Sequence record: OR544955
Source of the DNA: Escherichia phage vB_EcoP_EP32B
Reading direction: 5' to 3' (one strand)
DNA length: 64,000 bases
The position numbers and the translations under genes were made by a program. Shown here piece by piece: positions 51,301-52,496 of this stretch. Within the stretch, counting starts at the first letter, position 1. Every line of letters begins with the position of its first letter. The notes under the pieces were generated by a model that searched no databases, was not told the origin of the DNA, and saw only the letters and a program-made list of their open reading frames with translations.

Positions 51301-51760
51301 AAACTATATCAAGGGCGATATTGTCGCCCTGTTTTCTAAAGGTAATAATATTGCTCATGGGTGTAATTGTTTTCATACAATGGGCGCTGGTGTGGCAGGA
51401 CAATTAGCAAAGGCTTATCCAAAAATTTTAGAAGCCGATAAACTTCAAACCGAATTCGGAGACGAGTCTAAACTCGGGACTTATTCGGTTTATGAAAAAT
51501 ATTTTAAGACCCATAAAGCTTATTGCTTTAATCTTTATACACAGTTTGAGCCTGGACCTAATTTTGAGTACTATGCTTTAATGAATTGTATAATAGAATT
51601 AAATGAATTCGGAAAGAATAAGATAACAAAGCCTGTAATTTATATGCCAAGAATTGGTGCAGGTATCGGTGGCGGAAACTGGGATGTCATCGAAGAGATT
51701 TTAGACACATATTCCACTAAACTAGAAATTGTGATTGTTGATTGGGAACCATTATTATGA
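51263..51760 (+). CDS. Macro-domain protein (start uncertain, TTG/GTG)
   Basis: 165 aa; GDI...NIAHGCNCFHTMGAGVAGQL resembles macro domain ADP-ribose binding motifs. Confidence 0.5.
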   Translation: MTLIIEDLQQVIKNYIKGDIVALFSKGNNIAHGCNCFHTMGAGVAGQLAKAYPKILEADKLQTEFGDESKLGTYSVYEKYFKTHKAYCFNLYTQFEPGPNFEYYALMNCIIELNEFGKNKITKPVIYMPRIGAGIGGGNWDVIEEILDTYSTKLEIVIVDWEPLL

Positions 51761-51969
51761 ATATACATTATCCACATCCATATGACCCAAAGAATAAGGC
51801 AGTAATTATTCGTCAATGGGAACGCATTTGCCGTACTAAATGCCCAATTAATAGTCCACATGATGTAGATAAAGACTATATTGGAACATTCGTTGAATAT
51901 ACCTTTATTGATAAGAAAGGTCGTAAACAACATGTAGAAGAATATTGCTTAAAGGTTACATGGTTATGA
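51742..51969 (+). CDS. Hypothetical protein
   Basis: 75 aa ORF overlapping tk 5' end. Confidence 0.4.
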   Translation: MGTIIMNIHYPHPYDPKNKAVIIRQWERICRTKCPINSPHDVDKDYIGTFVEYTFIDKKGRKQHVEEYCLKVTWL

Positions 51970-52496
51970 GTCTTACTGCCGCCCATAACTATAAAGAACG
52001 TGGCATGGGTGTATTAGTTCTTAAACCGGCTATTGATACTCGCGATTCAAAAGGTGAAATAGTCTCTCGTATTGGTATTCGTCAGGACGCCAATATAATT
52101 ACAAAAGACATGGATATCTTTGAATTCTATAAATGGGCTGCAGCACAAAAGGATATTCATTGTGTATTTGTTGACGAAGCTCAGTTCTTAACTACTGAAA
52201 AGGTGTATCAACTTAGTCGTATTGTTGACGTATACAATGTGCCGGTAATGGCATATGGACTACGAACAGATTTTAAAGGTAATCTATTTGAAGGTTCTCA
52301 AGCATTAATGGCTATTGCCGATAAGCTTGTTGAACTTAAAGGTGTCTGTCATTGCGGTAAAAAGGCCACAATGGTAGCTAGAGTCACGGAAGACGGACTT
52401 CCAATTACAGATGGCAGTCAAATTGAAATTGGTGATACTGATAGATATGTGTCATTATGCCGGAAGCATTGGAATGATTTGACAGGGTTGTTATAA
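51960..52496 (+). CDS. tk: Thymidine kinase lacking the N-terminal P-loop (5'-truncated tk)
   Basis: Matches TK from ...[10 protein letters not shown] through C-terminal Zn motif CHCGKK...LCRKHW; no GxxxxGKS upstream in any frame; in-frame stop at 51924. Confidence 0.7.
   Translation: [178 protein letters not shown]

Follow-up and report, generated by a model that had tools for sequence, protein, structure and literature searches.

The thymidine kinase gene of phage EP32b in record OR544955 lacks its P-loop codons, probably through an assembly drop-out

In the deposited genome of Escherichia phage vB_EcoP_EP32B (EP32b; OR544955), the gene for thymidine kinase (tk) begins without the codons for the ATP-binding P-loop. 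Has the phage lost the 5' end of this gene, has it exchanged it for another sequence, or does the defect belong to the record and not to the phage? We addressed this question by comparing a 64,000-nucleotide stretch of the record (the window, to which all positions refer) with related phages, both at tk and along its whole length.

The truncated gene and its neighbours

The truncated gene lies in a T-even block, tk.4, tk.3, tk and rI.1, at 51263-52736 on the plus strand. The features that matter here are as follows, with a slash marking the join.

51263-51760, plus strand: tk.4, an intact gene for a macro-domain protein (PF01661 and annotations)
51757-51969, plus strand: tk.3 (DUF7202), a conserved T-even gene of 70 aa (PF23832, 131 bits; protein identical to JS09 tk.3)
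51924-51926, plus strand: TAA stop in the tk frame, upstream of the tk ORF and inside tk.3, which is in a different frame
51966-52496, plus strand: truncated tk ORF of 176 aa, Met-Ser fused in frame to Tk residues 20-193 (Pfam and JS09 Tk match)
51971-51973, plus strand: tk deletion junction, ATGAGTC/TTACTGCC; codon 3 of the small ORF just after tk.3 lies on the left, tk codon 20 on the right

The product matches the Pfam TK family (PF00265) with 165 bits (E = 2e-48; cut-off 20.6) over profile positions 20-176 of 176. When full-length JS09 Tk (193 aa) was used as a tblastn query, window positions 51972-52493 corresponded to its residues 20-193 with 100% identity over 174 aa, so that the retained part is identical to an intact homologue and free of decay. 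The catalytic acidic motif, FVDEAQF, is kept and aligns with IDEVQF of the solved thymidine kinases 2ORW and 1XX6. The zinc lasso is kept as well, with four Cys/His ligands in VCHCGKK and LCRKHW that align with CHRCG...CRDC of 2ORW. What is gone is codons 1-19, and with them strand beta1 and the P-loop (Walker A, MNAGKS). GenBank places the start at ATG 51960 and labels the resulting protein 'thymidine kinase' (WPK29012.1, 178 aa, MVMSLTAAH...).

The family assignment and the missing P-loop had been proposed in a preliminary description of this DNA, and both are borne out by these matches, as is the in-frame stop at 51924. Its statement that no P-loop occurs upstream in any frame also holds: a six-frame scan for [AG]xxxxGK[ST] was empty from ~51100 to ~56600, and the nearest Walker A-like string, at 51049-51072, is a chance 'ASDYCGKS' within the upstream vs gene. 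The overlapping 75-aa ORF that it listed is real (51742-51969; 70 aa from ATG 51757) and is tk.3. The span that it gave for the kinase gene, 51742-52496, merges tk.3 with tk; tk proper runs from ATG 51966 (51960 in GenBank) to 52496.

Could the N-terminus be encoded elsewhere, by a split gene, an intron or an upstream exon? Residues 1-19 of JS09 Tk had no tblastn match anywhere in the 64-kb window, and a search of the whole window with residues 1-31, together with the six-frame Walker A scan, returned nothing that could serve as an upstream exon or another source of the motif. We therefore rejected this arrangement. Judging by the mechanism of the TK1 family, a product without the P-loop is expected to have no TK1-type kinase activity. 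The Rossmann-like core has also lost its central strand, beta1, and the beginning of helix alpha1, which should destabilise the fold, as TK1 structures such as 2ORW and 1XX6 suggest.

Compared with Mosigvirus and other T-even Tk proteins (JS09 AIA80040.1, RB69 Tk and T4 Tk; PF00265), the EP32b product shares the FVDEAQF motif and the CHCG...CRKH zinc lasso but not residues 1-19, and its locus has the same order (vs, tk.4, tk.3, small ORFs, tk, rI.1, rI) without the two small ORFs upstream of tk. Artefact or not, neither the enzyme nor its gene neighbourhood is new. Promoter-like sites in 51000-52800 occurred at chance level in a promoter and terminator scan and have no bearing on the gap.

The junction at position 51972

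About 650 T-even phage records match the tk region, the closest being Mosigviruses at 98-99% identity, and every top match falls into two pieces and holds 423 or 446 bases more than the window. Identity to JS09 is 98.2% in the left flank (773 nt aligned) and 99.5% in the right flank (829 nt), and the two flanks meet at window position 51972. The gap measures 446 bp against the type represented by JS09, O157 typing phage 3 and EP32a, and 423 bp against the JQD51 type. Because both flanks are collinear with relatives and no base at the junction is unaccounted for, the alignments identify the change at tk as a blunt deletion with no replacement. The preliminary description had instead read the locus as a 5' replacement. 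The overlapping ORF is the ordinary upstream tk.3, which adjoins the truncated gene because the deletion brought the two together.

The lost segment takes in the first 19 codons of tk and two small ORFs, and its left edge lies 7 nt into the first small ORF. In relatives, these two ORFs separate tk.3 from tk. At least two types of this cassette exist, that of JS09 and that of JQD51, and the left edge of the gap falls exactly where these two diverge. No relocated copy of either ORF was found within the window by tblastn. Since the T at window 51957 agrees with JQD51-type relatives, the parental cassette was probably of that type. Junction homology is 1 nt (C) against the JS09 type and 0 nt against the JQD51 type.

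Across the junction the window reads ATGGTTATGAGTC/TTACTGCC, in which ATG AGT of the small ORF is joined in frame to tk codon 20. The Met-Ser of the truncated product thus derives from the first two codons of this deleted ORF, and the tk.3 stop overlaps the new ATG (ATGA). An in-frame fusion with this overlap would arise by accident about one time in three. The string that spans the junction is ATGGTTATGAGTCTTACTGCCGC, and the intact 5' end of tk in relatives has the form ATGGCTAGTTTAATTTTTACATATGCCGCTATGAACGCTGGTAAGTC.

This junction appears to be confined to a single record. The spanning string was absent from 50,697 phage records and from viral, metagenome and genome contigs, and a look-up returned no contigs encoding the exact truncated Tk protein. 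Other members of its 90% protein cluster are partial or full-length tk on short contigs and do not have the junction in common. No start-truncated tk occurred among 60 of 160 Mosigvirus records sampled across the ranking. The matches in these same records started ahead of tk, at its ribosome-binding site or at its start codon. We considered codon 20 as a natural mosaic boundary and rejected it, as partial matches in this sample begin at the ribosome-binding site or start codon instead.

In the JQD51 record (PV204681.1, locus 2058-3460), product names seem to be off by one position: the name 'thymidine kinase' is given to the rI.1-like CDS of 213 bp, whereas the tk CDS before it (582 bp) is called 'hypothetical protein'.

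Other blunt gaps in the window

Two genomes, O157 typing phage 3 (KP869101) and EP32a (OR544954), served as references for an alignment of the whole window. About 17 blunt gaps were found in 64 kb, all in one direction, and extra bases relative to KP869101 never exceeded 15. Overall, 24,001 bases of the window correspond to 31,226 bases of KP869101. The gaps, with sizes relative to KP869101, are listed by window position.

1840: 50 bp, uvsY.-1
10448 (10439-10458, minus strand): 34 bp, gp23, frameshift
12235-12250, minus strand: 28 bp, gp21, frameshift
21224 (21223-21225, minus strand): 36 bp, gp14 neck protein
38312 (38311-38313, plus strand): 77 bp, gp4/gp2, 3' end of gene 4
41402: 614 bp, arn-like gene
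42635: 24 bp
42870 (42870-42871, plus strand): 4925 bp, from 19 nt into tRNA-Met to 33 nt into an ORF
45070: 93 bp
45913: 35 bp
47992: 390 bp
48034: 29 bp
49578: 146 bp
51972: 446 bp, tk
60076: 133 bp
62238: 216 bp
~63080: ~190 bp

Several of these gaps interrupt genes that a T-even phage requires. The affected reading frames are the following.

9423-10951, minus strand: gp23, major capsid protein, split into ORFs of 185 and 306 aa, residues 1-171 aligning in one frame and 180-520 in another; the string expected at its junction (window 10448) is GAAGAAGTGAGTGCCAGAGCTGG
11815-12428, minus strand: gp21, prohead protease, with residues 1-65 and 75-213 in different frames (fragments of 73 and 120 aa)
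37794-39134, plus strand: gp4-gp2 fusion ORF of 446 aa, in which gp4 (head completion protein) lacks its last ~10-25 residues and its stop and is fused in frame to gp2 (DNA end protector)

GenBank labels both gp23 fragments 'major capsid protein' (WPK28953.1 and WPK28954.1) and carries two gp21 fragments (WPK28956.1 and WPK28957.1); cluster homologues measure 518-522 aa for gp23 and 211-215 aa for gp21. Frameshifts in both gp23 and gp21 leave a phage unable to build heads. EP32b has been reported to form plaques, and its host range and burst size in one-step growth have been described (PMC11657129). The gaps in gp23 and gp21 therefore cannot be real, and the deposited sequence misrepresents the phage at these two sites.

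The largest gap also removes tRNA sequence. Of tRNA-Met, no more than the first 19 nt are left (42852-42871) at the 4.9-kb junction; relative to EP32a this gap measures 4,277 bp, and the lost stretch includes tRNA-Arg. ARAGORN found no tRNA in the whole window, in agreement with the published account, which gives EP32b 156,698 bp and 0 tRNAs and EP32a 2 tRNAs (PMC11657129). The genomes of relatives measure 167-170 kb, which leaves EP32b ~12 kb short overall. The gap at 41402 interrupts the arn-like gene ('nuclease inhibitor') 25 nt past its start codon and measures 286 bp relative to EP32a.

Multiples of three are not favoured among the gap lengths, and junction microhomology averages 0.77 nt (13 junctions), compared with 0.73 nt when blunt joins were placed at random on that reference in a simulation. 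Seven junctions (tk, gp23, tRNA, 60076, 47992/48034, 62238 and 41402) had no single-piece match in the 50,697 phage records, and the best matches across them always came in two or three pieces. Two further gaps, the one in gp14 and the 35-bp gap at 45913, coincide exactly with hypervariable patches between the two references. The accessory (hyperplastic) half of the window holds 12 gaps and the structural-gene half 5, and those in the accessory half are also larger. Because of this density and size, some accessory-half gaps could be real strain differences.

A 42-bp island identical to the reference (47993-48034) lies between the 390-bp and 29-bp gaps. Because it is too short for an assembled contig, it hints at a reference-guided consensus from which uncovered stretches were removed.

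Several gaps have an edge at an ATG or 5-8 nt past one (windows 38312, 41402, 47992, 51972 and 62238-62239). Left-hand edges of this kind read ATGAGTC/ at tk, ATGACA/ at 62239 and ATGAAAAC/ at 47992, and /ATG edges occur at 38312, 41402 and 62238, the right-hand sequences being /ATGAGC, /ATGTTA and /ATGGTT. By a rough estimate such edges are more frequent than expected for random positions; cassette boundaries in these phages fall at gene starts.

Explanations for the gap and the state of the record

Because tk is one of about 17 sites with such a gap, some of them in essential genes, we consider it most likely that the truncated gene is an assembly artefact of record OR544955, a judgement that rests on its association with the other gaps. 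The tk gap would share its cause with those in essential genes: segments that were polymorphic, divergent or poorly covered would have been lost during assembly or consensus building, and their flanks joined without Ns. If so, tk would be intact in the real phage and would follow a JQD51-type pair of small ORFs. The record resembles short-read assembly drop-outs of this kind in its one-directional blunt gaps, its chance-level junction homology, the frameshifted essential genes of a growing phage, the ~12-kb shortfall and the edges that in some cases fall at polymorphic patches. The 42-bp island, in contrast, would be unusual if contigs had been joined and looks more like the product of a reference-guided consensus. 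The genome of this Mosigvirus was obtained solely from short Illumina 2x150 reads by de novo assembly with SPAdes 3.13; only this assembly is described, with no mention of contig joining or of a reference-guided step (PMC11657129). The right edge at codon 20 is a point against the simplest form of the artefact explanation, in which a divergent cassette failed to assemble. Because codon 20 is not a natural mosaic boundary, an unmappable cassette is insufficient to account for the loss of the first 57 nt of tk.

The main alternative is a real and recent loss, in which EP32b, or a dominant subpopulation of the lysate, shed 423-446 bp by illegitimate recombination and became tk-null, relying on de novo dTMP synthesis and host Tdk. 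The tk gene is dispensable in T4, so a real deletion would be viable. Spontaneous deletions occur in non-essential regions of T4, classical tk mutants included, and the EP32b gap is like them in hitting a dispensable gene of the hyperplastic accessory region. The retained tk, free of decay, would fit a very recent event, and the ORF left at the junction is neatly in frame and coupled to tk.3. Classical T4 deletions, however, commonly occur between short direct repeats, whereas the EP32b tk junction has 0-1 nt of homology, not beyond chance, and sits among gaps that cannot be biological. Indistinguishable blunt gaps in the same record break gp23, gp21 and gp4. The junction is moreover unique among the ~650 related records and three large contig collections, and the sampled Mosigviruses offered no start-truncated counterpart. 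With about 16 other blunt gaps in the record, several in essential genes, we regard a biological origin of this one as unlikely.

Two further readings carry far less weight. In one, the P-loop-less Tk would be real and functional, coupled to tk.3 and acting as a non-catalytic, thymidine-binding (nucleoside-binding) protein or as a dominant-negative, poison partner of host Tdk oligomers. The in-frame fusion with its ATGA overlap and the intact FVDEAQF motif and Cys/His zinc lasso would suit such a role, but a junction known from one record has no conservation that points to selection, the loss of beta1 and the start of helix alpha1 should destabilise the fold, and every argument for an artefact applies here too; we consider this very improbable. 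The other is the 5' replacement already mentioned, by mosaic exchange or by insertion of a mobile element, to which we assign almost no probability. An apparently unrelated ORF does abut the truncated gene, but that ORF, tk.3, lies upstream of tk in all relatives. The flanks are collinear at 98-99.5% identity with every junction base accounted for, no homing endonuclease, intron or intein sequence is present, and the alignments, which show a pure deletion, rule the replacement out.

Taken as biology, the truncated tk would at best be a recent null allele of a dispensable and well-known phage gene. The wider consequence concerns the record. OR544955 appears to hold many internal drop-outs, which leave it with split gp23 and gp21 genes, a gp4-gp2 fusion, no tRNAs and ~12 kb missing. 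Conclusions on gene content or 'safety' that are drawn from it, and scans that read the record as biology, will produce spurious pseudogenes and spurious gene losses.

EP32a (OR544954.1), a sister record deposited from the same work, is likewise short at 163,906 bp and lacks some segments of O157 typing phage 3, for example at the site that matches window 60076; it may carry the same assembly problem. The two phages also differ in the gene for Hoc, a PKD-domain protein (window 4742-5754), where EP32b has 1011 bp in place of the 726 bp of EP32a. Unlike the blunt gaps, this difference is an ordinary natural mosaic.
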